From a virus, in IMG/VR virus record IMGVR_UViG_3300037511_000274: a stretch of DNA of 60,591 nt, one strand, 5' to 3'. Position 1 is the first letter of the stretch, and every line of letters starts with the position of its first letter. The notes under the pieces are model-generated. The model did not search any database. It was not told the origin of the DNA and saw only the letters and a program-made list of their open reading frames with translations. The position numbers were made by a program, and so were the translations under genes. This document shows, one piece after another, positions 25,046-54,458 of this stretch.

Positions 25046-25172
25046 GGGAGCACCGGGCGTGTTGCCTGTGGTTGCCCGGCTCCCCCATTTCATCGGCCCT
25101 CTTAACCCCGGCCGCATGGGGCGTCCACCTTGAGTTTTGAAGCAGAGTCGTGGGCGGACCTCGGACTCTCCG

Positions 25173-25249
25173 CTGGCTCCGCTGGACTTGAACCAGCAAC
25201 CTCCCCGAGTTTGCACCCCGGGTAGCTCTGCCAATTGAGCTAGAAGCCA
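25173..25249 (-). tRNA. tRNA-like gene, nominal anticodon GCA (Cys), with an over-long anticodon stem
   Basis: Canonical 7-bp acceptor stem, U8, D arm GCUC/AAUUGGCA/GAGC, and T arm GCUGG/UUCAAGU/CCAGC. The anticodon arm is 21 nt rather than 17. No CCA is encoded. Confidence 0.6.
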
Positions 25250-33663: not shown

Positions 33664-35540
33664 GCCCCGTCCCGGAGCGCCTGGAGCATGGCGTCCCGCT
33701 TGTCCTTGCGCACGCCCAGCCGGATCCCCCGGGCCTTGGCGAGGACGCGTAGCTGGCCGGTGTTCAGCTCCTCGATCGAGGTACCGGCGGCCACGCCACC
33801 CACCTCCCCCTCGGCCACGACCTCGCGCGCCTTCAGCTCCTCGGCGGACTTCTCCAGGGCGGCCACGCCATCGGGGTCCACCCGGCGCCACTCGTCCTCC
33901 AGAGAGTTGATTGACACTCCAGTGTCACCTCCCAGGTCCGGCCGGTCGGCGCGCTCCTCCACGATCTTCACCGGACCAATTCCCGGGATGTCCGCTTCCC
34001 TCGTCACCGGCGCCGGGTCCACGCCCTCGCCAGTGATCGCCCGAACCGGCATGTCCGAGGCGAGCCCCCGCTGGCTGTGCGTCAGCTCCCCGATCGGCTC
34101 GGCCGCGTGGCCGGTGGTCGCCCACTCCTGGCGATCGGTCAGCTTGGTCACGGCCAGCCGCTCGTGATAGATCGTCACCGGCGCCAGGACGCCCTCGGCC
34201 ACCAGCTCGTCCACGGCCTCGGCCACGCCCGGCCAGTCCGGGTGGTGGTAGTCGTCCACCGCGATGATGGCCCCAGGGGCAAGGTGCGGCGCCCACGTCT
34301 CGATGTCTAGGCGCGCCCCGTCGCGGGTGTGGTCCCCGTCCACGAACAGCAGGCCCACGGGCTTGCCGGACCAGTCCGAGCCCACCTCGAACGAGAACGC
34401 CTGGACCAGCTCGATCCGCTCGGCGTAGCCCAGCTCCCGGACCCGGTACTCCGCCCACCGCTTGGAGTCGATCTCGGTAAAGGGCGGGTCGTAGACGTTG
34501 CCCTCCAGGTCCCACGGGTCGATGGCGGTCACGTGCGCGCCGTTACCCTGCTTGGCGCCCCAGGCCATGATCAGCGCGGTCCGGGCCTGGAACACGCCCA
34601 GCTCCACGATCTCGTGGTCCGCCGGGACGCCAGCGGCGAAGTCCGCCAGCACCATGCCGATCTCGTCCGGCGTCGCTCCCCGGACCTCCTTCAGCTCCCG
34701 GGTGAACGGGTATCGGTTCATGTCGATCCTCTCCCTGGTCGGCCCGGACCTCAGCCGGGGGTCTCGCGTGGTGCGCACCACCGGCCGGACGGACGGCCGC
34801 ACAGGCCCCACCTTGAACTCCGGCGCCCCCGGCCGCAACGCGCGCACGGTGCGGATGTCCTGGAGCAGGCCCTGGCGCCTCCAGCGCTCGTAATCGCGCC
34901 GGTCGTTGCGGTACTGCTCGCGCGAGTTCACCCGCTTGTACTGGTCGTCCATCGGGGCCTTGCCGCCCGCGTACGGGTTGAAGTGCTCCACGCGCACCTC
35001 GGGGAGGTGACGCATCGCCCCGGCCCCGTTGAACAGGTCCATCATCGAATTGTCGGAGTACATGTGCTCCACCGGCGCCGGGACCATCCGGCCGAGCGCG
35101 GCCACCGCGTCGGCGGTCACGGCCCACTCGGTGGAGAGCTTGGCGCCCTGGTACCCGTCGTCCCCGTAGACCATGCCGGTGCCCATCTCGTGGAGCACGG
35201 TCAGATAGCGCTCGGCCCAGTTCATCGTCTGGGGGAGGTGATCGTCACCGGCGAACCCCAGGGCGAAGTACCGGCCCTCGGCCGCCAGCGCCGTGGCCAC
35301 CTCGTTCAGCTTGTGGACCATCGGCCGCCACTCGGGCACCTCCACGAGCCGGACCGGGAGCGCGTCCATCTGCGCGATGTCCCGGTACCCGCCGATCTCG
35401 GGGTCGTCCGCGTCGGCCACCAGCACGAGGTCCGCCACGTCCCACGCGTTGGTGAAGTCCCAGGCGCCGATCACCTTCAGGATGTTGCCGGGTCGGCCCC
35501 GGGTCGGGACGATCACGGCCAGCTCAGTCCGCTTAGGCAT
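33660..35540 (-). CDS. fusion protein: glycosyltransferase, class I SAM methyltransferase, and C-terminal Rho_N/SAP-like motif
   Basis: LAVIVPTRGRP...LVADADDPE (GT2-like). EIVELGVFQARTA...LLFVDGDHT...AVDDY (Methyltransf_24-like). LNTGQLRVLAKARGIRLG at the C-terminus. Confidence 0.8.
   Translation of the reverse strand: MPKRTELAVIVPTRGRPGNILKVIGAWDFTNAWDVADLVLVADADDPEIGGYRDIAQMDALPVRLVEVPEWRPMVHKLNEVATALAAEGRYFALGFAGDDHLPQTMNWAERYLTVLHEMGTGMVYGDDGYQGAKLSTEWAVTADAVAALGRMVPAPVEHMYSDNSMMDLFNGAGAMRHLPEVRVEHFNPYAGGKAPMDDQYKRVNSREQYRNDRRDYERWRRQGLLQDIRTVRALRPGAPEFKVGPVRPSVRPVVRTTRDPRLRSGPTRERIDMNRYPFTRELKEVRGATPDEIGMVLADFAAGVPADHEIVELGVFQARTALIMAWGAKQGNGAHVTAIDPWDLEGNVYDPPFTEIDSKRWAEYRVRELGYAERIELVQAFSFEVGSDWSGKPVGLLFVDGDHTRDGARLDIETWAPHLAPGAIIAVDDYHHPDWPGVAEAVDELVAEGVLAPVTIYHERLAVTKLTDRQEWATTGHAAEPIGELTHSQRGLASDMPVRAITGEGVDPAPVTREADIPGIGPVKIVEERADRPDLGGDTGVSINSLEDEWRRVDPDGVAALEKSAEELKAREVVAEGEVGGVAAGTSIEELNTGQLRVLAKARGIRLGVRKDKRDAMLQALRDGA
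33911..33928. promoter_or_regulatory. orphan dyad TTGACACTCCAGTGTCAC (contains the perfect palindrome TGACAC-TCCA-GTGTCA)
   Basis: Encodes GDTGVSINS with ACT, GGA, TCA and TCT codons. Confidence 0.45.
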
Positions 35541-36207
35541 CGGGGCTCCAGGTGAAATGCGGGTGCTCGATCAGCGAGCGCTCCCCAGGGTGGATCTTCC
35601 GGTCAATCTGCCAGCGCGATCCCTCGCCCGGGGTCCGGCTGGTCGAGTAGAGGTAGTGGTACATGATCCGGGGGATCACCACCTCGGAGCGCAACAGCTT
35701 GGCGCTCCTGAGCTGTTCGGCCCAGGCCCGGTCCTCGGCTGACCCGGCGCCCACGCGATCGAACCTGGCCTTGCGCGCCAGCGCGGTCCGGATGGGGTTG
35801 ATGTGCGAGATGTCCCGCTCGTACCGGCCGGGGTAGTTCTTCCAGCGCCGGTGCACGAGCGAGTGGTGGGCCACCGCCGTGGGCGCCCCGTCCGAGTAGC
35901 ACTGGACCTGAAACCCGACGTAGTCCGGCTGGGTCTCCAGGGCCGCCATCACCTCGGCCACGTAGTACGGGGCCACCAGATCATCGTCATCGACGAACGA
36001 GACGTAGTCGGTGTCCGCGCTCTGGACCATGGTCTGGCGGATCTTGGGGAGGGACGGACTGCCGTTGTTGAACCAGCCGACCACGCGCGCTCTCCCGGCG
36101 TACGGATCGAGCTGAGGCAACAGGCCCGCCATCAGCCTCTCGAACAGCGCGCGCCGCTCGCCCAGGGTGGGCACGAGGATGGTCCACGTTGGCGGCATGG
36201 CTGTCAT
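35533..36207 (-). CDS. family 2 glycosyltransferase
   Basis: ILVPTLGER...YVSFVDDDDLV pattern. 8-nt overlap with the next gene. Confidence 0.85.
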   Translation of the reverse strand: MTAMPPTWTILVPTLGERRALFERLMAGLLPQLDPYAGRARVVGWFNNGSPSLPKIRQTMVQSADTDYVSFVDDDDLVAPYYVAEVMAALETQPDYVGFQVQCYSDGAPTAVAHHSLVHRRWKNYPGRYERDISHINPIRTALARKARFDRVGAGSAEDRAWAEQLRSAKLLRSEVVIPRIMYHYLYSTSRTPGEGSRWQIDRKIHPGERSLIEHPHFTWSPDA

Positions 36208-36256
36208 GTCCTCAATCTAGCAGACCAGGGGGCGCCGGGCACAACCCCCGGCATCG

Positions 36257-36395
36257 CGGGGGACCGGGGAGACCGAGGCTACCCTCACCCCCGGTCCCTC
36301 GCGTGTTACGCGTGTGCACCCGCCCGCCGAACAACAGATCACTTTCAGCAACGTGTATAGGTGGTGAGGGTAGCCTCGGTCTCCCCGGTCCCCCG
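36257..36395. repeat. long inverted-repeat element, copy B
   Basis: Perfect 33-bp arms CGGGGGACCGGGGAGACCGAGGCTACCCTCACC (36257-36289) and its reverse complement (36363-36395) around a 73-nt centre. The right arm ends exactly at the stop codon of 36396-36677. Confidence 0.9.
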
Positions 36396-36677
36396 TCACT
36401 CGGGAGCGGGCTCCGGGTCGGGCTGGGGCACCGGGTTAGTGGGCGTGGCCGGGATCATCTCCACCGAGTAGAACTGGGCGGTCACGTCCCCGTTGGGGTG
36501 CTTGCCCGGCCAGCCCTGGAGCAGGTCCACCAGGCTGGTTACGGCCGCTTTGATGTCGTCCGGCGTGGCGGTCCCGCCATCGCTCTGGATCGACATGCTG
36601 ATGGACAGGCCGTTGTTGGTGGGGACGCTGATCTGGGCGGGGAACATCTGGACGGGTTGCGGGTCTCCGAACGGCAT
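36396..36677 (-). CDS. hypothetical virion-associated protein, 93 aa
   Basis: RBS GGAGGAAGA. Last gene of the tail block. Confidence 0.75.
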   Translation of the reverse strand: MPFGDPQPVQMFPAQISVPTNNGLSISMSIQSDGGTATPDDIKAAVTSLVDLLQGWPGKHPNGDVTAQFYSVEMIPATPTNPVPQPDPEPAPE

Positions 36678-36691
36678 GGGTCTTCCTCCCC

Positions 36692-37378
36692 TTACTGCGG
36701 TAGCACGATGGCTTGGCGCCGGTTGTAGCTGACCGTCCCGCCGGACGAGGACCGGTAGGACAACGTGACGTTGTACTGGGTGCCGGGGGTCAGCCCGGTG
36801 ACCACGTCCGAGCTGACGATGGTGGCCTGGAGAGAGGCCGTGCTGGACCGGATGATCCCGGCCGTGTTGTCGTTGGCGTTGCGGATGACCGAACCCAGAT
36901 TGGGCGTGGCTCCGGTCCGGATCTGGAAGTCCATCAGCGCGTAGTCACCGGCCGTGGCGTTGGCCGCCGCCGCCTTGCACGAGACCATCACGGTGCCCGA
37001 GGGCGGCGCGATGAACGCCACGCCCCAGACATTGTTCGTGGCGCCGGTCAGCGAGTTGACATAGGACGTGCTGGTGGTGGTGCCGGTGTCGGTGTTGCCG
37101 CCGGTCGCCACCACCGGCCCCGGCTGGACCGCCTTACCCGAGCCGCCCAGGACCAGCAGCGAGCCCCGGTAGCTCAGCACCTGGACCGACTGGCCGGATA
37201 CGAACCGGGCCGAGCCGAGGACCGGCACGTCCGCCACGGTGGCGCCGTTCAGCAGGATGTCCACCGTGCCGTCCGAGGCGATCGAGGACACCGTGGCCGC
37301 CTGGAGCCGGAGCGGCCCCTGGCCGTCCGGCTCGGGGTTCAGCTTCTTCTTGATCTTGCTGAGGTTGATGCTCGTCAT
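36692..37378 (-). CDS. minor tail protein, 228 aa
   Basis: Ser/Thr/Gly-rich beta-type sequence within the tail block. Confidence 0.7.
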   Translation of the reverse strand: MTSINLSKIKKKLNPEPDGQGPLRLQAATVSSIASDGTVDILLNGATVADVPVLGSARFVSGQSVQVLSYRGSLLVLGGSGKAVQPGPVVATGGNTDTGTTTSTSYVNSLTGATNNVWGVAFIAPPSGTVMVSCKAAAANATAGDYALMDFQIRTGATPNLGSVIRNANDNTAGIIRSSTASLQATIVSSDVVTGLTPGTQYNVTLSYRSSSGGTVSYNRRQAIVLPQ

Positions 37379-38451
37379 GCCAGCTCCCGGACGGTCAGCG
37401 TGGTGTCCCCCACGAGGTCCAGCGCCACCACGTCCACGGCCAGGATCTTGCCGCCGTTCGAGACCACGTCACCGGCCGAGATGGTGGGGTCGTACGGGAC
37501 GGTGAGCTGGTAGCTGGCACCGGCGCCCACGTTCTCCGCCAGGATCGTGGTCGCCGCGCTCTGGGCCTGGGGCACGGTGGTGATGAGCGGGGAGCTGTAG
37601 AACAGCGTCACGCGGCCGTACGGGCTCGTTCCCGGCCCGGTGCCCGCGTAGGTCGGGGAGGAGGGATCGGTGTCCATGGCGACCGCCTGGACCGGCGTGG
37701 TGCCGTCCTGGGGCTCGCCCCGGGCCACCACCACGTTGGGCGGCTTGGTGTCGTAGTCCGCGTCCAGGGTCGCCACCGAGGAGAGCGGGTAGGCCGTGGC
37801 CGGGCTGGCCGTGGCCGCGCCCACCTGGATGTGACCGACCCGGTCATACCAGGCCGTCCGGCTGAACCCGTCCAGCACGTCCAGCACCTCGGACCACGGC
37901 GCCGAGCCGGTGTCCAGGCCGAACACCCGGGGCGCGCCGAGCGAGGCGCCCACCGCGCTGACGTTCGGGTTGACGCCCACCCGGTTGGTGATCACCTGAT
38001 TGATCATGGTGCCCAGGTCGGTGCCGGTCGCCACGGTGAACGGGGTCTCGAACCGGTAGCGCTCCACGGCGCCGGAGATGTCGGCCAGGCCCACGTCCAC
38101 CGTGCGCTCGCCCGCCCGCTTGCCCGCTCGGGCCGAGGCCACCTCGTACGTGCCGTAGGGGACGACTGACACTGAACCGTCAAGAAGCGTCAGGCCCAGC
38201 TTGGCCACCACCCGCGTGCCGAACGGGGTCAGGATGTCGCCCGGCCGGGTCGGCAACAGGTCGTTGCCAGCGAACGTGAGCTGGCCGTCCCACCGGCCGT
38301 TCCGCGTCGCGTCCTGGGTGAGCCGCCCGCTGATCGGCTCCAGGGTGACGGACTCGCCTCCCCGGTAGAACTCAAACACCATGTAGCGGCTGTAGCCCGT
38401 GGGCGTGGCGAGGGCCGCCTGGTGGCGCGCCGAGGTGAAACGCTGGCTCAC
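37375..38451 (-). CDS. minor tail or baseplate protein, 358 aa
   Basis: GTGA overlap start at 38451. Tail-block context. Confidence 0.7.
   Translation of the reverse strand: MSQRFTSARHQAALATPTGYSRYMVFEFYRGGESVTLEPISGRLTQDATRNGRWDGQLTFAGNDLLPTRPGDILTPFGTRVVAKLGLTLLDGSVSVVPYGTYEVASARAGKRAGERTVDVGLADISGAVERYRFETPFTVATGTDLGTMINQVITNRVGVNPNVSAVGASLGAPRVFGLDTGSAPWSEVLDVLDGFSRTAWYDRVGHIQVGAATASPATAYPLSSVATLDADYDTKPPNVVVARGEPQDGTTPVQAVAMDTDPSSPTYAGTGPGTSPYGRVTLFYSSPLITTVPQAQSAATTILAENVGAGASYQLTVPYDPTISAGDVVSNGGKILAVDVVALDLVGDTTLTVRELA
38166..38183. promoter_or_regulatory. orphan dyad CTGACACTGAACCGTCAA in a minor tail gene
   Basis: Encodes LLDGSVS with CTT, CTT, GGT, TCA and TCA codons. Confidence 0.45.
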
Positions 38452-41288
38452 AGGAACTCCCCCGGGTCCGGCGTGGTCGGCCACGCCACGTTCACCATCG
38501 TGATGGACAGCACCTTGACCCCGGGAGTGGCGGGCTGGACGGTCCAGCCTTGCGGAGCGAACCAGCCCGGCGTCCCGCCGAGCGGGGACCAGTAGACCGC
38601 GTCCGAGGCCAGCAGCTCCTCCAGCGTGTCGATGGCGGGCATGCCCTCCACCGCGATCACCAGCGAGAGGTCCCGGCCGCTCGGCGTGGAGCTGACCGTG
38701 TGGAGCCCGCCATCCAGCGGTGTGGAGTCGGCTACCAGCTTGGGGAAAGCGCCGGAGCGCTCGGTGGCCACAGCCAGCTTGGTGGTGTAGTTGGCCAGCC
38801 GGTCGAGCCCGTCCCCGTAGGTGAAGCTCGGCACGGTGGCGCTGGCGAACTCCGTCACCTTCAGCTCGGGCACCGCCAGCGGGCCGCCGGAGATCGTGCC
38901 GTCCAGCCGGACGAAATGCACCTCCTTGTACGGGGGGAGGTGGCTGGAGCTGGAGGTGTTGCCGCTCCCCTTGCTGGTGACGCCTGGCGAGCCCGAGCCG
39001 GTGGACCCGCTGGAGTGGTCGTGGCTGGTGGTGGGCGAGGAGCCCAGGTCACCGAACGAGGGCGCCTCGAACGAGCCGGTGGTGGAGGTCAGGACGTTGG
39101 TCCCGTGGGTGTGGCCCGCGATGTCGTGGGCGTGGCTCGGCGTGGTGTGCGAGTGCGACGAGGAGCCGCCGGTGGAGTTGACCGAGTCCGAGCCCGCGTC
39201 CCGGCAGAACCACGTCCGCATGTCCGGCGTGCCGTTGCCACCATTGCACAGGGTCAGCAGCGGATCGAGGCTAGCCACGTCGCCCACGTACAGGCCGATG
39301 ATCCGGGTCTGGATCCCGCCGCCGGTGTTCTGGAGCACCTTCAGCCGCTTGTTGGGCGGCTCGTGGTTGACCGCGTTGGTGTCGCCCGCATCGGTGCCGC
39401 CGCCGTAGCTCGTGGTGTTGCCGGTGCTGGCCGAGCTGACATCCATCGGATGGGTGTGCCGGGGGAGCCACCGGGGGGAGCTGGAGCCGTAGCCCGCCTC
39501 GGTCGAGCTGGCCGGGTTGCTGAGCGAGGTCGAGCCGATCGAGTGGTCGTGGCTCAGCCCGGTGTGCGTGTGGCCGCCGATGGGGTGGGTGTGCGTCGCG
39601 CTCCCCGTGGTGCCGCCGCCGTTCCCGGCCGCCGCCGCGCCCCGGAGGTAGCGCCCGCTGGCCGCCGCGTAGCTGCTCCAGCCGGACACGCTCTCGGTGG
39701 CCCAGCCGACCACGCCGGACGGGTAGGCCGCCTGGGCGCCGTTGGAGGCGATCCAGATCACGTCCAGCACCGGGGGCACGTTGCTGACCGCGCTCACGCT
39801 GGGGGTCGCGCTCCCCGAGGTGCCGCCACCATGCGTGCCGGTCGAGCTGGGCCGGGTGTGCGAGTGCGGCTGGTCGGCCTGAGGCTGGCTGGCGCCGTTG
39901 AACCGGGCCGAGGTGGTGGAGGAGTTGCTGGTCCCGGTCGAGCCGCCCACCGAGTGGTTGTGGGAGCCGATCGAGTGGTTGTGGCTCGGGAGCGTGTGGC
40001 CGTGGGTCGAGCCGCCGCCGGTCACGCCGGTGGGCACGCCGGTCCCGTTCGATCCCCTCGGGAGCCAGCCGTCCAGTGCCGTGACCCGGCTCCAGCCGGA
40101 CGGGATGCTGGCGGCCGTGCCCGGCCAGCCCAGGATCAGATCGTCCGGCAGAGTGCTGGGCAGATCCACGCTGGTCGAGACGTAGCCCTGGTAGCGCACC
40201 CGGTACGTGATGTCACAGGGCGAACTTGACACTTCACAGTCAGGACCGGGCACCGGCTGGGGGTCGAGCTGCGGAATGGCCAGGTCCAGGTACGAACCGT
40301 TGAGGCCGTCCGCCACCACCGCGATGCGGTAGGACCCGGTGCAATCGTCGCGCCAGACCTCGGCCACCACGTAATCGTCATCCCACTGCTGGCCGCCGGG
40401 GTTGGCCCAGTTCACCCGGTAGCCGCCGTTCTCCGGCACCACGCTGACCAGGGGAGGCGAGGGCGGGGGGACCGTGTTCTGGACGGTGAACTGGTAGGTG
40501 ATGGCGTTCTGGTACTGGTCGGCTCCCCGAATGGTGGAGCGCACGCCGAACACGGCCCAGTAGGTGCCGTCCGGCAGACCCGGCGCCACGTCCACGCTGA
40601 CCGGGGGCTGGCCCGCGTCGCCCACGTCGAACACGTTGGGGCCGTTGGCCGAGCCGGTCCGCACGTTGGCGAACCAGTTCAGCGCCGGGAGCCCGTCATA
40701 GTCCACCGCGCCGAAGTACATGGTGGGCGCGTTGGTGTCGGTGACGGTGCCACCGTTCTGGTTCGTCCCAGCCGCGTCGCGCAGCTCGGGCGAGAACTGC
40801 GGCGCCAGCCGACAGTCCACCTCGATATACATCTCGGCCGTGCGCGTCTCGCTCGCGCCCCCGGCCACGTTGTCCATCCAGCCGCCGCCGATGTTGAGAT
40901 CGGACAGCGCGCCCGCCGTGTCCAGGCCATAGCTGGTCTGCTGGAACCAAGCGCTGTACTGGTCGATGAACCCTGTGGCGTCAACGGCAACCGTCGAGTA
41001 GCCGATCCAGTCGGAGGTCCCCCGGCCAACGTCGATGTCCTCGGTGCACGTACCGGTGTCGCACCGCACCCGGATGTGGCCCCGGATCCGGTGGCGCTGG
41101 TAGCCCGCCCCTGGGGTGTGGCTCTCCACCCTCAGGTTGTAGTTGTTGCCCGAGCTGGCGAGCGGGACCTGGACATACGTGCTGTCCGAGTTGTCCGAGG
41201 TGACCCCGGCCAGGGTGCCCGAGGGGACCGCCGTGCCGCCGCCCGTCTTGCGGACGGAGAGCGGCCGGAGAACGTCCGTCACTGCCAT
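38448..41288 (-). CDS. giant tail fibre or receptor-binding protein with repeated collar-like modules and HxH motifs, 946 aa
   Basis: IPSGWSRVTALDG...THGHTLPSHNHSIGSHNHS, ATHTHPIGGHTHTGLSHDHS, SHSHTTPSHAHDIAGHTHG and TTSHDHSSGS. Confidence 0.8.
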   Translation of the reverse strand: MAVTDVLRPLSVRKTGGGTAVPSGTLAGVTSDNSDSTYVQVPLASSGNNYNLRVESHTPGAGYQRHRIRGHIRVRCDTGTCTEDIDVGRGTSDWIGYSTVAVDATGFIDQYSAWFQQTSYGLDTAGALSDLNIGGGWMDNVAGGASETRTAEMYIEVDCRLAPQFSPELRDAAGTNQNGGTVTDTNAPTMYFGAVDYDGLPALNWFANVRTGSANGPNVFDVGDAGQPPVSVDVAPGLPDGTYWAVFGVRSTIRGADQYQNAITYQFTVQNTVPPPSPPLVSVVPENGGYRVNWANPGGQQWDDDYVVAEVWRDDCTGSYRIAVVADGLNGSYLDLAIPQLDPQPVPGPDCEVSSSPCDITYRVRYQGYVSTSVDLPSTLPDDLILGWPGTAASIPSGWSRVTALDGWLPRGSNGTGVPTGVTGGGSTHGHTLPSHNHSIGSHNHSVGGSTGTSNSSTTSARFNGASQPQADQPHSHTRPSSTGTHGGGTSGSATPSVSAVSNVPPVLDVIWIASNGAQAAYPSGVVGWATESVSGWSSYAAASGRYLRGAAAAGNGGGTTGSATHTHPIGGHTHTGLSHDHSIGSTSLSNPASSTEAGYGSSSPRWLPRHTHPMDVSSASTGNTTSYGGGTDAGDTNAVNHEPPNKRLKVLQNTGGGIQTRIIGLYVGDVASLDPLLTLCNGGNGTPDMRTWFCRDAGSDSVNSTGGSSSHSHTTPSHAHDIAGHTHGTNVLTSTTGSFEAPSFGDLGSSPTTSHDHSSGSTGSGSPGVTSKGSGNTSSSSHLPPYKEVHFVRLDGTISGGPLAVPELKVTEFASATVPSFTYGDGLDRLANYTTKLAVATERSGAFPKLVADSTPLDGGLHTVSSTPSGRDLSLVIAVEGMPAIDTLEELLASDAVYWSPLGGTPGWFAPQGWTVQPATPGVKVLSITMVNVAWPTTPDPGEFL
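40227..40244 (+). promoter_or_regulatory. full promoter-core copy TTGACACTTCACAGTCAG antisense inside the fibre gene
   Basis: 17 of 18 identity to the promoter core with no -10 element. Encodes PDCEVSS with CCT, TGT, GAA, TCA and AGT codons. Confidence 0.5.
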
Positions 41289-41318
41289 GATGTCACCCTA
41301 TCCCGGATCACCGTGGCA

Positions 41319-44300
41319 TCATCCCACGTCGGCCAGTTGCGGGGCAGGCTGAGGCCCGGTGGCGATGAAGTCCGCCGTTACCTGGCGCACCCGGCCGATC
41401 TTCACGATCTTGACGGAGGAGCCCACGGGGGCCGCCCAGACCTCGGCCGCGTCGCTCGGGGAGACGAGAACCAGCGGCCGGTTGAGCACCGTCAGGAGCT
41501 GGGCCAGCTCGGCCTCGCTCTCCACGGCCGTGCTCAGGTGGAGGTTCCGGCCGCCGGGCGGCGCCGAGGTGACGTACCGGCCGCCCATCACGCCGGTGGC
41601 CGCCGTGAACGGCCGGTCCACGTCCCAGGTGAAGATCCCGCCCACGGCCGCGAACAGCGGACCGTCCGCGTTCTCGCTCCGGATCAGGTGCTGGTCATCG
41701 TCCCAGACCAGGCAGAACTCCTCGGGCGGCGCCGGGGGCGTCGGCTCCTCCACAAGCTGGATGAACGCCACCTCCTCGTACGGGGGCTCGGCCGTGGAGT
41801 TCGCCCAGGTGCCCGAGGTCGAGCCGCCCACCGTGGGCGTGGTGGAGTCGGTGCTGGGCGCCGTGTGAGTGTGGGTGCCCAGGGCCACCGTCACGATGTT
41901 GGTGTTGTTGATGGCGGCCGTGGCCGCCCCGGCGCTGGCCAGGCTCTGGGTGTGGGTGTGGCCCGAGGTCGAGTGGTCGCTGTGGCTGGAGGTCGAGTGG
42001 CTGTGCGGGTTGAGGGAGCCGCCGGTCTGGCCGAACGTGCCAACGGTGCCCTGGGGGTACTTGCCGAAGAACGAGGGCGTCCCGTTCGTCCCGTCGCACA
42101 ACTGCCAGTGCTTGGGGATTGAGCCGAGCGAGCCGCGCCACGCACAGATGAGGCCCACCGGGAGATCCGGCACGCCCGAGGTGTTCTGGCGCGCCCGGAT
42201 CGTGAAGTAGGGGATGTAGTCCCCGACCCGGCCCGAGGTGACCCCGGCCGCGCTGGAGCCCAGAGCCGCCGTGGCCGTGCTGGCCGCCGAGATCGAGTGG
42301 CTGTGGCTCCCCGTCCACAGGGCTTGGGTGGACCCGGCAAACAGGCTCTTGTTGCTGGTGACCGAGCCCGAGGTGGACGAGTGCGTGTGGGAGGTGCCGG
42401 TGTGCGTGTGCGCGCCCACCGTGTGGGTGTGGCCCTCCATCGCGCTGGCCACCTGGACTCCGCCGTCCGCACCGGCCGCCGCGCCCTTCAGGTAGCGGCC
42501 GTGGGCGTTGGCGTAGTCCGTCCAGCCTGACACTGAAATGTCAGGCATGAGGCCCATGGCGTTGTTCGGCACGCCCGCCGGGGTGCCGTCCGATTCCATC
42601 CAGATCACGTCCAGCCGGACCGGGTCGTTGGCCACGCTGCTGGTGCTCGGCGTGGCCGAGCCGGACGAGACGCTGTCCGTGCTCGTGCTCGGCACGGTGT
42701 GGGTGTGGCTGGACAGAATGGCCGTGGTGCCGGTGGCCCCGTCGTTGCCCGGGGTCGTCCCGCTGGCCGCGCCGCTGGCGCCGGTGGTGGTGTGGCTGTG
42801 GCTCAGGCTGTGGGTGTGGCTGGGCACCGTGTGGGTGTGCGTGGCCGCCCCGCCGGTGGTGCCGGGCTGGGTCGAGCTGCTGGCCACCTGCTTGGGGTAC
42901 TTGCCGTCCAGCGCCGTGGTCCGGGTCCAGCCGCTCGGGACGCTGGCGTTGGTGCTGGGCCACATCACGATCAGGCCCGCCGGGACGCCGGTGTCGAACG
43001 AGTCGGACCAGTCGGACACCCGGAGTGCCCCGTCCACCCTCCCCACCGTGCGCGCCCGGTAGTAGGAGCAGCACGGATCCGGGGTGTGCTCGCACGTAGC
43101 GCCCACGCCGGTCCGGGGGAGGGAGTAGTCCACGTAGGTGGCGCACTCGTCGGTGGCCAGCGGGCCGAGGATGGCGACGCTGGTCAGCCGCTGGTCCGAG
43201 GTGATGCTGGCCGGGTTGGAGACGGTCCAGAGGTTGCCCTGGTCGTCGGTGAACGAGGTGGTCCCCGCCATCCGGCCGGTGAAGTCCGGCGAGACGATCA
43301 GGGCGCCGTCCGCGCTGTTGCGCACCTCGGCCCAGTAGACCCGGCCCGTGAACCGGTTGAACTCGCCCTGGTACTTGCCGACGTAGTAGCCCGCCGTGCT
43401 GTTGAACAGCGAGGTGGTCCCGCCGCCCGAGTTGGTGATGGGGTCGCTGAAGGCCACCCAGGCGCCGGTCTCGTCCATCGCCTCGAACGTGACCGCGTAG
43501 CCCCCGGCGCCGTCGTCCACGTCCAGGCGCACGCGCATGGTCACCCGGCCGTAGCCGTCGATCGGGGGCCGCGAGGTGGCGCGCGCAAAGAAGGTGTTGG
43601 CGCCGTCGGTGCTCCAGACCAGCATCGGGATCCCGATCAGACTGGGGTCTCCGTTGCCGTCCGCGTCCAGGCTCAGCCGCCACGAGCGCTGGCTGACCCC
43701 GTCGTTGTTGTAGTGGGCCACCAGGGTCTCGTCCCCGGCCGGGCGCCAGTCGTCCGAGCGCTGGGCCGAGACGATCACCTCCAGGTCGGCGGGCACCGTG
43801 CCGGGGTTGGGCGTGGAGGCGTAAGCGTTGGATCCGGCCGTGCCGGGGAGATCGAGGTAGCCGCCCTGGGCACAGTCCACCCGCTGGATCTCCACGTACG
43901 CCTCGGCGCCGTCGAAGTCGTCCACCAGCGGCGCGCACGCCTCGATCGAGTAGAACGGCGTGTCCGCCACCGGCGTGACGGCAGGCTGGTCCGGCACCTG
44001 GACCGAGCCCACCGAGATGGTGAACGAGGTGGTGACCTCGGCGCTGGCGTACGCGGTGTTGCTCCCCAGGGTGGACCAGACCTGGGCGTGGGCCACGTAC
44101 GCGCCGTTGTCCAGGGCGGCCGTGGCCTGGTTGGTGGCCGGGCCGCTGACCACGCCGGTGTCCCAGACGATGGCGCCGCTCAGGGTCACCCAGTACCGGT
44201 ACTGGCGCCCCGAGAGGCCGTCCAGGTCCGGCGTACCCACGGTGATGGTGGGCTGGGCCGTGTCACCGATGGTGGCGCTCGGCGTGCCGGTGCCGTCCAG

Positions 44301-44750
44301 CACCTGGAGGGTGAACGTGGGCGCCTCGCGCGAGTCCACGTCCAGGTACAGCTCCTCCAGCTTGACGCCGGTGGACTGGCCGGTCACGTAGCACGAGAGC
44401 ACCGTGGAGCCGTCCGCCGGGACGCCGGTCCCCCACGAACCGGTCACCGTCCCCGGGGAGGAGGAGAACTGGGCGGCCACGCCAGCGACCAGGCCGCCGG
44501 ACGCCAGCCGCACGGCGCCCCAGGCGTCCCCGTCCTCGCCCCGCATCCGGAGCCGGGCCTGGTGGCGCCGCTCGCCCACCGGCGGCGCGTCGGCCGGGGT
44601 CGCCAGGATCAGGGCCGAGCCCGAGCCGGACCACGTGTCATAGGTCGAATCGTTGTCGTCCGAGGTGGCGCTGTGGAGCGTGCCGCTGCTGGCCGTCCAG
44701 CCGACCCCGGACGAGGTGGCGGACGGCCGCAGCGTGGTGATGGTGCCCAT
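41319..44750 (-). CDS. giant tail protein, paralogous in its C-terminal two thirds to 38448-41288, 1143 aa
   Basis: VPSGWTRTTALDG...ATHTHTVPSHTHSLSHSHT, GHTHTVGAHTHTGTSHTHS, PHSHSTSSHSDHSTSGHTHT and GTHTHTAPS. Confidence 0.8.
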   Translation of the reverse strand: MGTITTLRPSATSSGVGWTASSGTLHSATSDDNDSTYDTWSGSGSALILATPADAPPVGERRHQARLRMRGEDGDAWGAVRLASGGLVAGVAAQFSSSPGTVTGSWGTGVPADGSTVLSCYVTGQSTGVKLEELYLDVDSREAPTFTLQVLDGTGTPSATIGDTAQPTITVGTPDLDGLSGRQYRYWVTLSGAIVWDTGVVSGPATNQATAALDNGAYVAHAQVWSTLGSNTAYASAEVTTSFTISVGSVQVPDQPAVTPVADTPFYSIEACAPLVDDFDGAEAYVEIQRVDCAQGGYLDLPGTAGSNAYASTPNPGTVPADLEVIVSAQRSDDWRPAGDETLVAHYNNDGVSQRSWRLSLDADGNGDPSLIGIPMLVWSTDGANTFFARATSRPPIDGYGRVTMRVRLDVDDGAGGYAVTFEAMDETGAWVAFSDPITNSGGGTTSLFNSTAGYYVGKYQGEFNRFTGRVYWAEVRNSADGALIVSPDFTGRMAGTTSFTDDQGNLWTVSNPASITSDQRLTSVAILGPLATDECATYVDYSLPRTGVGATCEHTPDPCCSYYRARTVGRVDGALRVSDWSDSFDTGVPAGLIVMWPSTNASVPSGWTRTTALDGKYPKQVASSSTQPGTTGGAATHTHTVPSHTHSLSHSHTTTGASGAASGTTPGNDGATGTTAILSSHTHTVPSTSTDSVSSGSATPSTSSVANDPVRLDVIWMESDGTPAGVPNNAMGLMPDISVSGWTDYANAHGRYLKGAAAGADGGVQVASAMEGHTHTVGAHTHTGTSHTHSSTSGSVTSNKSLFAGSTQALWTGSHSHSISAASTATAALGSSAAGVTSGRVGDYIPYFTIRARQNTSGVPDLPVGLICAWRGSLGSIPKHWQLCDGTNGTPSFFGKYPQGTVGTFGQTGGSLNPHSHSTSSHSDHSTSGHTHTQSLASAGAATAAINNTNIVTVALGTHTHTAPSTDSTTPTVGGSTSGTWANSTAEPPYEEVAFIQLVEEPTPPAPPEEFCLVWDDDQHLIRSENADGPLFAAVGGIFTWDVDRPFTAATGVMGGRYVTSAPPGGRNLHLSTAVESEAELAQLLTVLNRPLVLVSPSDAAEVWAAPVGSSVKIVKIGRVRQVTADFIATGPQPAPQLADVG
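42527..42544. promoter_or_regulatory. orphan dyad CTGACACTGAAATGTCAG (6-bp arms)
   Basis: Encodes PDISVSG with ATT, TCA and TCA codons. Confidence 0.45.
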
Positions 44751-44758
44751 GTCCTCCC

Positions 44759-47700
44759 CTAACCCTGGGCGTTGGCCAGGGCCTCCAGCAGCGCCTCGGC
44801 GGCATCCTCGCCCGCCTTGGTGCCGCCACCCTGGATCACGATGGCGCCAGGCGCCAGGGTCACGTTAACGGTCCGGCCCGAGCCGCCGGTGGGAGCGGTC
44901 GCGCTGGCGCCGTCCCCTCCCCGGGCCGCGCCCGCCGTGAACGAGGGAAGCTCGGCGGTCAGCCCGGCCAGCTTCTTGCGGATCGAGCCGAACTCGTCCT
45001 GGAGCCCGTCCCCGAACCCGGCCATGACCATCCGGCCCGAGTCCCGGAGGATCTTCTGGTCCACCTCGGCCGGACCCTTCCAGTCCGGGAGCATGCTGGT
45101 CAGCGAGCCCAGCAGGGACTTGACCCGGCCGAATCCAGCCTGGATGCCCGAGATCAGACCACTGATGATCTTGGAACCGGCCGAGACCAGCCAGCTCCCG
45201 GCGCCCGCGAACGCGCCGGTAACCGCGCTCTTGACCGAGCCGATCTTGGCCCGTACCGCGCCGATCTGGTTGGCGATGCCGTTGACCAGGCCCTGGATGA
45301 TCCGGACCCCGGCCGAGATCAGCCAGCTTGCCGCGCTGGCCACCGCGCCCAGGATGGCGGACTTCACGCTGTTGATGGCCGAGCGCGCCCGGCCCACGCC
45401 GCTGGAGATGATCGAGCTGGCGAACCCCACCATCAGCTTGACGCCCGCCGCGATCATCGCGCCGAGCACGCTCAGCAGCGCGTTGACCATCGCGATGTTG
45501 ATCTGGGCGATGCCTCGCACGATCGAGGGGATCGAGCGGATCAGCGCGCCCAGCAGCGCGAGCATGAGCTGGCCCGCCGCGCTCGCAATCTGGGGACCGT
45601 TCTGCTGGAGCACCGTCACGAACGTGGGGATCAGCACGCCCGAGATGAAATTGATAATCATGGGCATGGCCGTGCCGAACGCATTGGCCAGCGCCACGAT
45701 CATCTTCACACCCGCGTCGATGATCTGCGGGTTGTTCTTCAACAGGTTGGTGATCTGCGGAATCAGCGTCCCGGTGATGAACGTGGTCAGCAGGCCGATG
45801 TTTTGCGCCCACGCCTGGAGCAATTGCTGGAGCACGGCAATACCCGCCTGAATGAACTCGGGCGCGTGCTGGAACAACTGCGTGATGGCCGGGATGATCT
45901 GGGTCGAGATCACATTGGCGATGATCCCGATATTGGACACCCAGCCCTGCATAAAGGTCTGGATGGCCTGGATGCCCTGCTGGATGAGCTGCGGTCCCTG
46001 GGTGCGCAGCGTGTTGATCAGGGTCGGGATCACCTGGGTCTGAATCGCGCTCACAAGCTGGGGGAGCGCGTTGCCGATGCCCTGGACGATGGCCACCAGC
46101 AGGTTGGTCCCGAGGAGCAGGAGCTGGGGCACGGCCGCGATCAGGGCCGAGATGATCTTGGGGATCGCCTGGATCAGCGCGGTGTAGAGCGAGGGCAGGG
46201 CGCCGAGGATGCCCTGGATCAGGCCCTGGATCAGCCGGAGCCCGGCCGAGATGATCGTGGGGATCAGGCCGATGATGCCGGTCACCAGCGTGGTCACGAT
46301 GTTGACGATGGCCGGGAGCAGCGTAGGCAGAGCGCGCACGATCCCGTCGGCCAGGCCGTTGATCAGCTCCCCGGCCGCCGCCACGACCTTGGGCACGGTC
46401 TGGACCAGGCCGTTCACCAGCGTGGTGGCGATGGCGACGATCCCCGAGATCAACTGGGGGATGATCGTGGGGAGCTGCTGGGCGATACCGAGCACGATCT
46501 GGATCACGGCGTCCAAGATTTGCTGCTTGAACGCGAGGAATTTCTGAATCAGGCCCGGCAGATTGTTGATGATGTAATTCAGGCCCTTGGTGACGATTGA
46601 CTTTATGCTGTCAACCACCCGGTCAAAGAAGCCCGGCGAGAACGCCTTTTCGATGATGTCGAATACCTGGCCGACCGAGGCGCCACCCTTGAAGGCGTCC
46701 CACGCTTCTTTCAGAATGGCGGGCAGCGGGCCGAGGAAGTTCTTTACCGCGACATAGGCGCGCGCCAGCCAGCCGATGAACTCGCCCAGCCAGCGGATCA
46801 CCTGACCGAGTCCCCGGATCAGATCCTGGAAGAAAATGGTGGCCTCGGGGCCGCTGGCCGCGATGTTGCCCAGGAAGTTCGAGATGGACTGGCCGAACCC
46901 GCCGAACTCCTTGGCGATCCCCTTCAGGAACGGGTTGGCCGCCGCCATCAGGTCCAGGAACCCCGGGAGGGAGTTGTGGACCAGCTCGGCCAGCCCCTTG
47001 GTGAACGGGACGATGGCCGGGGCCAGGATGCCGAACGCGGAGCGGATGATCGGCATGTCCCGGACCGCCTGGTCCCGGAACAGCGCGAGCGCGTCAAGGA
47101 GCGGCTGGGCAATCGGCTTGGCCGCCTTGGCGAACTCGGTCTCGATCGACTTGCCGATCTTGGCCGCCGCCGCCGCGAACTCGGGGTTGGTCTTGGCCAG
47201 CACCTTGGCGCCGATGCCGATCAGTCCGGCCGAGGCGCCAAAGATGATCCCGCTGGCGATCAGCGCACCGGCCGCCGGGCCGACCACGGCCGCGAGCCCG
47301 GCCACGGCGGTCAGCCCGGCCGTGATGAGCGCCGGGCCGATCAGCTTGGGGAGGGTGCTCAGGCCGCCGGTGAGCGCGTTGGCGAACAGGGTTGCGGAGT
47401 CGGTCCCCGTCCGGCCGAACAGGCCCGCCAGAAAGCGCCTGATGGCGTTGCCGTCGGTGTTCTTCTTGACCGCCTTGGGCAGGGCCTTGCCGAACGCCTT
47501 GCCGCCCGCGTCCCCGCCCTCGCTGCCCGCCTTCTCGCCCTCGGCCACGAACCGGCCGGTGAACGCGTCCCGGAGCCGCCCATCGGAGCCCCGGACAACC
47601 CCGTCCCCGAAGTCCTCGCCCGCGCGCTCGCCCGCCTTGCGCGCGCCGTCCTCGTCCACCGGCACCTTGACCGGGTCCAGGTCGATGCGGTCCAGGGCGC

Positions 47701-47782
47701 GGTTGAGGTCTCGTTCGGTCTGCCGGGCGAAGTCCCGGACATCGCCTTCAACCTCTACGCTTGCTGATCCGACATCGGCCAC
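44759..47782 (-). CDS. tape measure protein
   Basis: 1007 aa. N-terminal VEVEGDVRDFARQ...LNRAL. Long hydrophobic and helical repeats. Position before the minor tail genes. Confidence 0.9.
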   Translation of the reverse strand: MADVGSASVEVEGDVRDFARQTERDLNRALDRIDLDPVKVPVDEDGARKAGERAGEDFGDGVVRGSDGRLRDAFTGRFVAEGEKAGSEGGDAGGKAFGKALPKAVKKNTDGNAIRRFLAGLFGRTGTDSATLFANALTGGLSTLPKLIGPALITAGLTAVAGLAAVVGPAAGALIASGIIFGASAGLIGIGAKVLAKTNPEFAAAAAKIGKSIETEFAKAAKPIAQPLLDALALFRDQAVRDMPIIRSAFGILAPAIVPFTKGLAELVHNSLPGFLDLMAAANPFLKGIAKEFGGFGQSISNFLGNIAASGPEATIFFQDLIRGLGQVIRWLGEFIGWLARAYVAVKNFLGPLPAILKEAWDAFKGGASVGQVFDIIEKAFSPGFFDRVVDSIKSIVTKGLNYIINNLPGLIQKFLAFKQQILDAVIQIVLGIAQQLPTIIPQLISGIVAIATTLVNGLVQTVPKVVAAAGELINGLADGIVRALPTLLPAIVNIVTTLVTGIIGLIPTIISAGLRLIQGLIQGILGALPSLYTALIQAIPKIISALIAAVPQLLLLGTNLLVAIVQGIGNALPQLVSAIQTQVIPTLINTLRTQGPQLIQQGIQAIQTFMQGWVSNIGIIANVISTQIIPAITQLFQHAPEFIQAGIAVLQQLLQAWAQNIGLLTTFITGTLIPQITNLLKNNPQIIDAGVKMIVALANAFGTAMPMIINFISGVLIPTFVTVLQQNGPQIASAAGQLMLALLGALIRSIPSIVRGIAQINIAMVNALLSVLGAMIAAGVKLMVGFASSIISSGVGRARSAINSVKSAILGAVASAASWLISAGVRIIQGLVNGIANQIGAVRAKIGSVKSAVTGAFAGAGSWLVSAGSKIISGLISGIQAGFGRVKSLLGSLTSMLPDWKGPAEVDQKILRDSGRMVMAGFGDGLQDEFGSIRKKLAGLTAELPSFTAGAARGGDGASATAPTGGSGRTVNVTLAPGAIVIQGGGTKAGEDAAEALLEALANAQG
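46596..46613. promoter_or_regulatory. orphan dyad TTGACTTTATGCTGTCAA (perfect TTGAC-N8-GTCAA) in the tape measure gene
   Basis: Encodes VDSIKSI with ATA and TCA codons. Confidence 0.45.
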
Positions 47783-49367: not shown

Positions 49368-49765
49368 GCCTGGGGCCGATCCGCAATCGGGCGCGGCTGG
49401 GGCTGACCGGCGCCGTAGTTGCCCACCGGCGGGTCCACGACGGTGGCCGGGCGCGGCACCGGGCCGGGCTTGCCCTGCTGGTCCCGGATGCCCGCTCGGA
49501 CCGCCCAGTCCTTGGCCTCCACGAGCTTGTTCAGCGCCGTGGTCAGCTCGGCCGAGTCGGACCGGATCGTGGCCACCAGCTCGGCGCCGGTCTGGTAGAG
49601 CGGCCGGGAGAACGCTCTCAGCGGCTCGGGGAGGTGGGAGAACGCCAGCCAGGCCATGGCCGTGACCACGCCCGGGTGCCGCCCCTCGGTGAGCCGGGCC
49701 GCGTGTTCGGCCGTGCCCAGGATGAATGCCGGGTCCTGCTCCCGGCCCAAGCTCTCCACGGTCAT
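49364..49765 (-). CDS. hypothetical tail-module protein, 133 aa
   Basis: ATGA overlap start at 49765. Its frame is -1 relative to the upstream gene. Confidence 0.75.
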   Translation of the reverse strand: MTVESLGREQDPAFILGTAEHAARLTEGRHPGVVTAMAWLAFSHLPEPLRAFSRPLYQTGAELVATIRSDSAELTTALNKLVEAKDWAVRAGIRDQQGKPGPVPRPATVVDPPVGNYGAGQPQPRPIADRPQA

Positions 49766-50214
49766 GCCGTCGCCTTCTTCCGGGCCGCCTTCTTGGCGGG
49801 CTTGGCGGACTTGGTGGCGCGCCGCGCGGCGCGGTTGCTGGTCGCGTTGGCCTCCTCGGCTGCATCCGCGAACCCGTCCACCACCAGGGCGATGAACGGC
49901 GCCAGGCCCTTGAACGTGAGCGTGCCGTCCAGGAACTGATCGTCCATCCACTCCACGTCGGCCTTGTTGACCAGGATGGTGTCCACGATCCGCCGGAGCC
50001 GGTCCAGCGAGCGCATGACCTGGGAGCCGGTCCAGGTCTCGTCCGGCGGCGCCTCGGTCAGGCTCTTGACCGTGCGGTCCCAGACCAGGAGCTGTTCCGG
50101 GGTCGGCATGTGCGTCCAGATCCCCCGGCCCATGAACTGGACCTCTACCTCCGGGATCGTCACTTCCTCCTCGGCGGGCTCGGCCGCCACCTGTTCAGTC
50201 ATGGGTGCCACCAT
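49762..50214 (-). CDS. hypothetical tail-module protein with Lys/Ala-rich tail (possible chaperone), 150 aa
   Basis: High GC3. Alternative ATG at 50202. Confidence 0.75.
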   Translation of the reverse strand: MVAPMTEQVAAEPAEEEVTIPEVEVQFMGRGIWTHMPTPEQLLVWDRTVKSLTEAPPDETWTGSQVMRSLDRLRRIVDTILVNKADVEWMDDQFLDGTLTFKGLAPFIALVVDGFADAAEEANATSNRAARRATKSAKPAKKAARKKATA

Positions 50215-50235
50215 ACTCCAGATTGAGGGGACATC

Positions 50236-50643
50236 TCACCGGTGGACGGTCATGCCCTCCTGGGCCGCCGTCTCCAGCAGCGCGGTCCGCAGGAACGGAC
50301 GGCCCCGCCGGGCGGGCTGGCGCACCGAGCGCGCATAGACCACGCGGCCGTCCACCACGAACCGGAGGTAGCCGCCGCCCCGAGCGCGGATGGTGAGGGC
50401 TCGCCTCCCCTCGTGCACGGCCGCCGCGTAGCGCGCGGTGTACTCCACCCGGCCGACCACGAGCGCGCCCCGGTCCCCGAGGGTCATGCTGCCCGAGGCC
50501 CGGAGGTTGCCGGTGTCCACGGGGCACAGGATCTGGGAGCGGTTGAACGTCCGGCGGGTCACCTTGCTGACGATCTTGCGCGCGCCGTTCATCCCTACGG
50601 CCTGGAGCTTGGGCCGGTCGATGATCAGACGGTGGCGCACCAT
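50236..50643 (-). CDS. HK97 gp10-like head-tail joining protein
   Basis: CPVDTGNLRASG...YAAAVHEGRR...GRPFLRTAL. Start trimmed to ATG 50643. Confidence 0.75.
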   Translation of the reverse strand: MVRHRLIIDRPKLQAVGMNGARKIVSKVTRRTFNRSQILCPVDTGNLRASGSMTLGDRGALVVGRVEYTARYAAAVHEGRRALTIRARGGGYLRFVVDGRVVYARSVRQPARRGRPFLRTALLETAAQEGMTVHR

Positions 50644-54032: not shown

Positions 54033-54036
54033 GGGA

Positions 54037-54372
54037 TCAGGTGCTGGAGCCGGTGACGGTCAGGGCCGTGATGCTGTACTCCCCAGCCGCGTTGAACGCC
54101 TGGTCCCCGGCCAGCGCGTCGTAGCCGTAGAACGTGCCCGCCGTGCTGGCGCTGAAGAACAGCGCGTTGGTGGCCGCCGCGCCCGCCGAGCCGGTGAAGT
54201 CGAACGGCACGTTGCTGGCGGTCAGCACGCCGGACGCCACCGAGAACGTGACCTGGCGCCGCTCGGCGCTGGTCTGGTCCCCAGAGGTCTGGCCACCGCC
54301 GGTGGCCACCCACATGACCACCTCGTTGCCCTGGTCCAGGACCGCGTTGATACCCGCCGTGTTCAGCGGCAT
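54037..54372 (-). CDS. hypothetical structural protein, 111 aa
   Basis: RBS GGGAGG. Beta-rich Ser/Thr/Ala/Gly composition. Confidence 0.75.
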   Translation of the reverse strand: MPLNTAGINAVLDQGNEVVMWVATGGGQTSGDQTSAERRQVTFSVASGVLTASNVPFDFTGSAGAAATNALFFSASTAGTFYGYDALAGDQAFNAAGEYSITALTVTGSST

Positions 54373-54385
54373 GGCCGCACCTCCC

Positions 54386-54403
54386 TTGACACTTAACAGT
54401 CAG
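54386..54403 (+). promoter_or_regulatory. dyad or core copy TTGACACTTAACAGTCAG just upstream of the RBS of 54037-54372
   Basis: Oriented antisense to the flanking genes. No -10 element. Confidence 0.45.
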
Positions 54404-54415
54404 CCTATCCGAGCA

Positions 54416-54441
54416 AGGCCCGGCGGTCACCCGCCGGGCCT
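54416..54441 (-). terminator. hairpin AGGCCCGGCGG-TCAC-CCGCCGGGCCT
   Basis: 11-bp stem 18 nt after the stop of 54459-55145. Confidence 0.6.
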
Positions 54442-54458
54442 CGTCGTTCCGAGCCGGA

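Follow-up and report, generated by a model that had tools for sequence, protein, structure and literature searches.

What does a long inverted repeat do at the point where the tail genes of a phage end and a glycosyltransferase cluster begins? The window, i.e., the entire stretch of 60,591 nucleotides that was analysed, is 70% GC and carries nearly all of its genes on the minus strand; its sole tRNA gene, a tRNA-Cys (GCA), is at 25172–25249 on the same strand. The first and last 127 bases of the window are identical (1–127 = 60465–60591), and this terminal direct repeat shows that the assembly is circular, with 60,464 bp; its start is arbitrary and uninformative on physical ends. The repeat in question, copy B, has arms at 36257–36289 and 36363–36395, which on direct reading are perfect complements of 33 nt with 73 nt between them; with one mismatch, the repeat finder extends the arms to 36 nt (36257–36292 and 36360–36395; 97% complementary) and leaves 67 nt between them. 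The adjoining bases, TCA at 36396–36398, read TGA on the minus strand and form the stop codon of the minus-strand open reading frame at 36396–36677, i.e., the arm abuts the stop codon. Direct reading and the repeat finder thus confirm the perfect 33-bp arms, the 73-nt centre and the position next to this TGA, as given in the initial annotation. Copy B also stands far outside the background, with a best inverted-repeat score of 33 compared to a mean of 8.2 ± 1.0 and a maximum of 13 in 300 random 300-nt windows, and a predicted RNA folding energy of −98 to −106 kcal/mol (z = −10.7 to −11.2). The only other comparable repeat that the finder returned in the window is copy A, with arms at 5488–5524 and 5595–5631 that are 81% complementary.

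Read in the direction of transcription, copy B has three parts, all described here on the minus strand. The distal, i.e., upstream, arm (36360–36395; C-GGGGGACC-GGGGAGACC-GAGGCTACC-CTCACCACC), delimited by sequence and repeat finder, comprises three 9-nt G-rich units and a lineage-specific inner part. It is followed by an asymmetric centre of 67 nt and 58% GC (36293–36359), recognized by centre alignment, profile and GC content, in which a conserved 5′ module (CCTATACACGTTG) precedes GAAAG and a 13-nt tract of alternating purines and pyrimidines (36307–36319). The proximal, promoter-side arm (36257–36292), assigned by repeat finder and spacing analysis, contains the C-rich units GGTCTCCCC-GGTCCCCCG, and its C runs begin 51 and 44 nt upstream of the −10 box. 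By the same approaches, copy A, likewise on the minus strand, is divided into a distal arm (5595–5631), a centre identified by the centre profile (5525–5594), and a proximal arm (5488–5524).

Both copies occupy defined positions in the gene order. The nearest isolate, and the only close one found, is the Actinoplanes phage phiAsp2, the record of which runs opposite to the orientation of the window; nucleotide identity reaches ∼80% in the glycosyltransferase gene only, and the portal proteins are 70% identical. Copy B lies between the pas32 homologue (36396–36677, minus strand; 93 aa; GC3 0.91), which by synteny with phiAsp2 is the last tail-module gene, and the pas33 homologue (35533–36207, minus strand), which by homology and synteny encodes a glycosyltransferase of 224 aa and is the first gene downstream, followed by a gene for a methyltransferase-glycosyltransferase fusion. 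Gene annotation and synteny with phiAsp2 therefore agree with the earlier statement that the element parts the tail genes from the glycosyltransferase/methyltransferase cluster. Upstream of copy A are an HNH endonuclease gene (6296–6655) and then one small gene, and the genes downstream encode a protein of 156 aa, a DUF1360 protein, the portal and a MuF-like protein. The large terminase is encoded at 13119–14705, and no small terminase subunit could be assigned with confidence. Between the upstream gene and copy A lies a terminator-like hairpin with an 18-bp stem, a 6-nt loop and a predicted energy of −37 kcal/mol (5746–5793, minus strand). Extra C-rich 9-nt units (GTTCCCCC, GATCACCCC and TCTGCCCCC) are present at and near 5685–5701, upstream of the G-rich arm of copy A, with which they could pair as an alternative partner. 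Copies A and B bracket a block of ∼29 kb with the virion genes, and do so likewise in phiAsp2, in which copy B is at 48% of the genome. The distance of 30.8 kb between the copies, or 51% of the 60,464-bp circle, is in line with the near-antipodal placement noted in the initial annotation; however, this spacing is accounted for by the conserved gene order, which places the copies around the virion block.

Several lines of evidence establish that the element is conserved and old. A search of IMG/VR with the glycosyltransferase gave 27 loci, 25 of them with enough upstream DNA, and 18 of these 25 have an inverted repeat that scores above the null maximum within 300 nt upstream of the gene. A search with the pas3-like protein gave 44 loci, ∼25 of which have an element of the same build upstream of pas1/pas3-like genes, in some cases with perfect arms of 32 to 56 nt. 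The element fills two syntenic sites, which are the same in ∼40 metagenomic relatives as in phiAsp2. Among close strains, it is identical in all. The phiAsp2 site corresponding to copy B has a weak repeat (18 nt, 83%), and a full copy A appears when the deposited ends of the phiAsp2 genome are joined. All 40 matches of the centre profile in related loci are in the sense orientation and never flipped, and in the window the profile matches both copies on the minus strand, so that their common orientation relative to transcription, as proposed before, stands. Because the same two sites are filled in divergent phages, the element is old, and the suggestion that a recent duplication explains the perfect arms of copy B is not tenable. 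Nor is a perfect copy B opposite a decayed copy A a rule: either copy can be perfect (copy A in 56 of 56 nt in locus L046) or decayed (copy B in phiAsp2).

Within individual genomes, the two copies are related to each other to varying degrees. In the window, A and B share the inner arm GGCTACCCTCACC, which is otherwise seen only in L032, the closest relative of the window; in phiAsp2, they share most of the centre, and the likeness ends at the edges of the element. In the window, in phiAsp2 and in other genomes alike, the similarity between A and B reaches the element edges and does not extend beyond them. Copies A and B are identical over >100 nt in the genome represented by L027 and L042, and in two further genomes the A–B identity falls within the top 1.5% of between-genome comparisons, whereas in other genomes the copies differ from each other. 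Thus, exchange between the copies is occasional. In the relative represented by L027 (∼2680–2960) and L042 (∼2500–2700), the element is in addition nested in a larger inverted repeat (…CCTAGAACTACTATGGT… / …ACCATAGTAGTTCTAGG…).

Outside this group of phages, searches returned very little. With the element as a nucleotide query, no match was obtained among isolated phages, and no comparable repeat was found in Rosebush, a distant relative in Cluster B2. An exact scan of viral contigs for the window-specific core (GGCTACCCTCACC...GGTGAGGGTAGCC) gave none, and the one match to this core in a bacterial genome is a chance match to an assembly palindrome in an unrelated metagenome-assembled genome; stray matches aside, the element core is absent from the bacterial genomes and other phage groups searched. 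When the unit-array pattern was used as the query, the matches were limited to two relatives that were already known, a simple tandem repeat and a further element that may be a distant member. The last of these (L077, 1457–1584) is on a short contig mis-binned as Planctomycetales; each of its arms has three GGGGGGAC units, and purines alternate with pyrimidines in its centre. No homologues of the window's flanking proteins were detectable on this contig, and the element may belong to another phage lineage. As far as the literature and databases were searched, this conserved element has not been described before.

The arms combine a short conserved sequence with extensive compensatory variation. 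Each arm contains three units of 9 nt (consensus GGGGGGACN), which are rich in G on the upstream arm and in C on the promoter side, with lineage-specific sequence inside. These GGGGRGAC units are the only part of the arms with a conserved sequence, and without exception the G-rich array lies upstream. The units are spaced by 8.5 to 9 bp, which does not match the DNA helical repeat, and arm lengths range from 16 to 56 bp across elements. In the 28 aligned elements, the 20-pair outer stem is 89.5% paired compared to 72.4% in shuffles, and double changes occur in 19 of the 20 aligned pairs, with 97 double-change cells compared to 28 in shuffles; none of 500 shuffles reaches the observed values, and pairing falls to at most 57% when the pairing register is slid. 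The arms are thus conserved as complementary sequences with compensatory changes in 28 aligned relatives, which supports selection for pairing, the second of the two origins that had been put forward for the perfect arms. Selection on an RNA helix is expected to leave an excess of G·U pairs. The arm pairs in 35 elements comprise 990 Watson-Crick pairs, 38 transversion-type mismatches, 20 G·U pairs in sense and 13 in antisense (p = 0.30), and the lack of a G·U excess among the mismatches makes the constraint look DNA-level. Folding of the whole element as RNA prefers the sense strand in 24 elements versus 11 (mean −3.5 kcal/mol, p = 0.009); this preference stems mainly from the centre, for which no consensus RNA structure is predicted. 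GGGGRGAC occurs nine times in the window compared to 18.9 ± 4.3 times in shuffles, i.e., below all 100 shuffles, and three of the nine occurrences are in the two elements. This rarity may reflect avoidance of a recognised signal, or simply that G-runs are rare in coding sequence.

The centre is distinct in composition and direction. It varies from 57 to 142 nt, has a GC content of 61% compared to 68.5% in control windows, and has a conserved 5′ module (CCTAYRCRCGTTG). An A/T run of at least four is present in the centre of 20 of 35 elements and in 3.8% of control windows, and the longest stretch of alternating purines and pyrimidines measures 17 nt in the median (maximum 36) compared to a median of 6 in controls; the longest such run of the whole window is the one in the centre of copy A (21 nt, 5531–5551). 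A promoter inside the centre was considered and rejected, as the TTG-type and TA-type motifs are only ∼12 nt apart and do not match the consensus.

The tight spacing of the element is to the sequence downstream. After 32 of 35 elements, there is a TANNNT box, often preceded by TGN, 5 to 8 nt before an ATG or GTG, and no Shine-Dalgarno sequence at a usable distance. In the window, these are the extended −10-like boxes TGC-TAGATT at 36214–36222 (minus strand), 6 nt upstream of the glycosyltransferase ATG, and TGG-TACGCT at 5445–5453 (minus strand), 5 nt before the ATG at 5439. Only 5 of the 49 genes in the window have this −10/start pattern, and two of the five are the genes after copies A and B. 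A TANNNT box close to a start codon that lacks a Shine-Dalgarno sequence is the signature of promoters for leaderless mRNAs in Actinobacteria. Judged by sequence, we infer that the box downstream of the element is a promoter of this type. In B copies, the C runs of the proximal arm start at approximately −60, −52 and −43 (±1–2) relative to TANNNT, while the sequence between them and the box has diverged, and in about half of the A copies the outermost unit is at −42/−43. By contrast, the distance to the upstream gene varies from 0 to 12 nt at B to ∼170 nt at A, where the separate terminator-like hairpin lies in between. The long stem is dispensable for the promoter, as one relative (L024) has a leaderless-type promoter without any inverted repeat and the arms of copy B in phiAsp2 are weak. 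A small palindrome between arm and promoter is not significant (z = +0.6) and was rejected as a component. A second promoter type, without an inverted repeat, is present at 4900–4945 and 50200–50245 on the minus strand and reads CCGAGATGYCCCC, 8 to 16 nt, TANNNT, 6 to 7 nt, ATG; the CCGAGATGYCCCC box is also found between the element and the −10 box in most relatives with copy B. The second of these sites suggests that the true start of gene 49762–50214 is the ATG at ∼50203.

The fixed promoter spacing, the polar units, the directional centre, the missing wobble signature and the separate hairpin before copy A together favour an element that acts at the level of DNA and is coupled to the promoter. 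We therefore tentatively propose, as the best available explanation albeit one to which we give somewhat less than an even chance, that copy B is one of two architectural and regulatory boundary elements of phiAsp2-like phages, each coupled to its downstream promoter. The order along transcription would be the stop codon of the tail gene, the GGGGRGAC array, an asymmetric and bendable centre with an A/T run in the majority of copies and an alternating purine-pyrimidine tract prone to non-B DNA, the inverted units, ∼30 nt and an extended −10 promoter, from which the transcript would start at or next to the glycosyltransferase ATG. Binding of a protein or formation of a stem would bring the two inverted arrays into contact, and the complex so folded would extend to ∼49 nt upstream of the transcription start. 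In this position, it could shield the promoter from the heavy late transcription out of the tail genes and also set promoter activity, and copy A would have the same role for the head-assembly operon. The initial suggestion that the element insulates or times the glycosyltransferase cluster is plausible, and it gains precision from the conserved leaderless-type promoter at a fixed distance downstream.

A candidate for the bound protein is encoded right after copy A. The 156-aa product of this gene (4969–5439, minus strand) is predicted to contain two tandem winged-helix domains in an AlphaFold model with a pLDDT of 80.6. It has a weak RFX match, and in fold it matches tandem winged-helix proteins, RTP and the DNA-binding domain of RFX, albeit in no case significantly (best E = 0.012). 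Homologues of this protein follow copy A in most relatives, consistent with a candidate binder of the element. A Pfam scan of 32 further proteins revealed no partition protein, sigma factor or primase tied to the element. Some observations count against the boundary explanation, namely the lack of significance of the fold matches, the unit spacing that is off the helical repeat, the modest preference for folding of the sense strand, and the promoter in L024 together with the weak arms in phiAsp2. It also explains poorly why the variation in the inner arms is mirrored and why perfect arms reach 56 nt, both of which would be superfluous for protein binding and point to real stem formation or to frequent gene conversion from arm to arm.

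The principal alternative is an RNA hairpin, which the element would form in read-through RNA where the late transcript of the tail genes ends. This hairpin would stop the polymerase without a U-tract, block 3′ exonucleases or be cut by RNase III, and in that way part tail from glycosyltransferase expression. The site is suited to such a function, since the stem lies at the stop codon of the last tail-module gene, i.e., at the 3′ end of a transcription unit, in the window and 0 to 12 nt past the stop in the B copies of relatives, and there is no other terminator between the tail gene and the glycosyltransferase gene. As RNA, the element is predicted to be very stable (−106 kcal/mol, z = −11), the predicted RNA stem of 33 to 36 bp between cistrons exceeds the 20 bp of RNase III sites, the arms covary strongly, and the sense strand is the one preferred by folding in 24 of 35 elements. 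In addition, C-ending codons of the kind that marks high expression are used by the upstream structural genes and not by the downstream cluster, making a drop in expression at this point plausible. However, a terminator has no need of a loop of 57 to 142 nt with conserved sequence and fixed orientation; the loop in the window is 67 to 73 nt rather than ∼3 to 8 nt, and the terminator scan is blank at the element. There is no T-run after the stem in the window or in relatives, and the sense strand reads on as CGATGCCGGGGG. The arm mismatches are not enriched in G·U pairs and thus lack the signature of G·U tolerance, copy A already has a compact terminator-like hairpin upstream, and the tight spacing is to the downstream promoter and not to the upstream gene. 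The centre, moreover, has no predicted consensus structure, and at gathering thresholds Rfam 15 gave no match; the best sub-threshold matches (38 versus 124 bits and 27 versus 120 bits) are far below the cut-off and are to generic long hairpins. On balance, we regard the RNA hairpin as possible yet unlikely. A further alternative is a DNA site for packaging or replication, with a bent centre that unwinds easily and, on either side of it, units that would bind the small terminase subunit or an initiator; copy A would be the cos region and copy B a second docking site or an origin. We consider this improbable, even though the deposited ends of phiAsp2, once joined, rebuild a complete copy A and the end falls inside the promoter-side arm, between GGGAGGTCC and ACCGGCTCCCCCC; an HNH endonuclease is encoded immediately upstream, as it is in those cos phages in which cutting requires HNH; the repeated units, the A/T run and the centre of lower GC content resemble such sites; GGGGRGAC is depleted elsewhere in the window; and the three 9-nt units per arm, with the arms inverted, have the arrangement of an inverted-iteron origin with putative initiator units. 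What argues against it is that copy B is in the middle of the genome and apparently uncut, given that the phiAsp2 record is one linear sequence of 58.6 kb, and that the terminase and replication genes are located elsewhere.

Two further signals that appear to favour packaging or replication have, or may have, other explanations. The cumulative G–C minimum at 35.5 to 36.5 kb is right at copy B; however, third codon positions are C-rich in the tail and capsid genes (skew 0.1 to 0.2; 36396–47782 and 52587–57884) and near zero in early genes. The minimum therefore follows from the codon usage of the highly expressed structural genes and mimics a replication signal, and we discarded GC skew as a sign of an origin or terminus. 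The end of contig L060 is the only metagenomic contig end that matches the phiAsp2 end and may be an assembly break: other contigs begin (L010, L016 and L081) or end (L083) inside the element, and specifically inside copy B. Because contigs break inside the repeat, a contig that stops there is no guide to the end of the genome, and the L060 end is not independent proof of a physical one; as a practical matter, short-read assemblies break inside the element. A related idea is that the working form is folded DNA, i.e., a stem, a cruciform or a structure containing Z-DNA, nucleated by the perfect arms and the alternating purine-pyrimidine centre, that the phage machinery would read as structure and not as sequence. 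The two copies would together delimit the virion block physically, one also with the genome end (cos) and the other as a mid-genome docking site or topological barrier. This is also an improbable reading; if true, tailed phages would have a system that organises the genome from two sites, of a kind not described in them. Finally, the element could be a selfish or neutral palindrome, i.e., a functionless miniature transposable element or by-product of template switching in replication. The presence of two similar copies per genome, the GGGG at the arm starts, the fast-changing arms and the neutral-looking spectrum of mismatches would fit this origin. By contrast, there is no target-site duplication, as the flanks CCCGGCATCG / TCACTCGGGA at B and CCTCGGGGCG / AGGGTCGTGG at A contain no direct repeat; the same two positions are filled in ∼40 divergent phages rather than variable insertion sites; orientation and promoter spacing are fixed; the properties of the centre are conserved; and, stray matches aside, the core is missing from bacterial genomes and other phage groups. 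We therefore find a neutral palindrome very hard to credit.

Among known systems, the origins with inverted initiator sites, e.g., SV40 site II, HSV oriL and oriS, and the archaeal ORB elements, resemble the element in having short inverted arrays of units around a deformable region, sometimes as perfect palindromes, in more than one copy per genome and near promoters. The element differs from them in that it is not linked to replication genes and lacks an AT-rich unwinding element, its centre being 61% GC. In lambda cosB, which is present once per genome, the R sites for terminase binding are in inverted order around an IHF bend. Inverted binding repeats around a bend, both putative here, a location next to the genome end (for copy A, the end of the phiAsp2 record) and upstream of the first head gene, and an adjoining gene for a winged-helix protein, predicted in our case, are common to both; by contrast, our element has a second copy in the middle of the genome and long complementary arms that covary, and lambda has no such long arms. 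In intrinsic terminators and RNase III sites of the T7 type, the loops are short and both G·U pairs and bulges are tolerated; the terminators also have a U-tract. They share with the element a stable intercistronic hairpin at the end of a highly expressed operon; the element, however, has a conserved centre of at least 67 nt and neither a U-tract nor a wobble signature. Thus, lambda cosB, terminators, RNase III sites and origins each share some features with the element and each fail at least one defining test. The SAS motif of Cluster K mycobacteriophages, GGGATAGGAGCCC, has two matches with two mismatches in the window compared to 2.85 expected, and none at the element. The closest described feature is the ESAS of these phages, in which 17-bp inverted repeats 4 to 13 bp apart are tied to the 13-bp SAS at the start codon and occur roughly 6 to 10 times per genome in the non-structural half (PMC3203893). 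The element and ESAS are alike as imperfect inverted repeats just upstream of some actinophage gene starts, with a conserved position and a lineage-specific arm consensus; by contrast, the element has arms of 16 to 56 bp built of 9-nt G-rich units, a conserved centre of 57 to 142 nt and two copies that flank the structural block. We rate it as a phage control element of the intergenic inverted-repeat kind, set apart by an unusual composite build and by its two-copy layout.

Little is understood of gene regulation in actinophages, in which most of the conserved repeats between genes lack an assigned role. The anatomy of the present element is clear and testable, with repeated units, arms that covary, a directional centre that is prone to form non-B DNA, and a leaderless-type promoter at an exact distance, and experiments are feasible since phiAsp2 has been isolated and can be cultured. 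If the boundary element does insulate or time its downstream genes, it would represent a compact natural boundary part for high-GC hosts, e.g., Actinoplanes, which is of industrial use; if instead folded DNA or a link to the genome end proved true, the element would exemplify a new mode of chromosome organisation in phages.

The window also contains a repeated motif of a different kind. The 17-nt motif GACTGTGAAGTGTCAAC is present in 14 copies compared to 0.09 expected (at 4954, 9483, 28848, 29837, 30389, 31341, 31685, 33910, 40225, 47795, 54385, 57930, 59666 and 60131), and its core is the dyad TTGAC-N8-GTCAA. On the opposite strand, ∼9 copies read TTGACA-N17-TAATGT, a near-consensus promoter facing plus-strand or early genes, while the others are without the −10 part. 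GACTGTGAAGTGTCAAC is probably a family of early promoters and operators.
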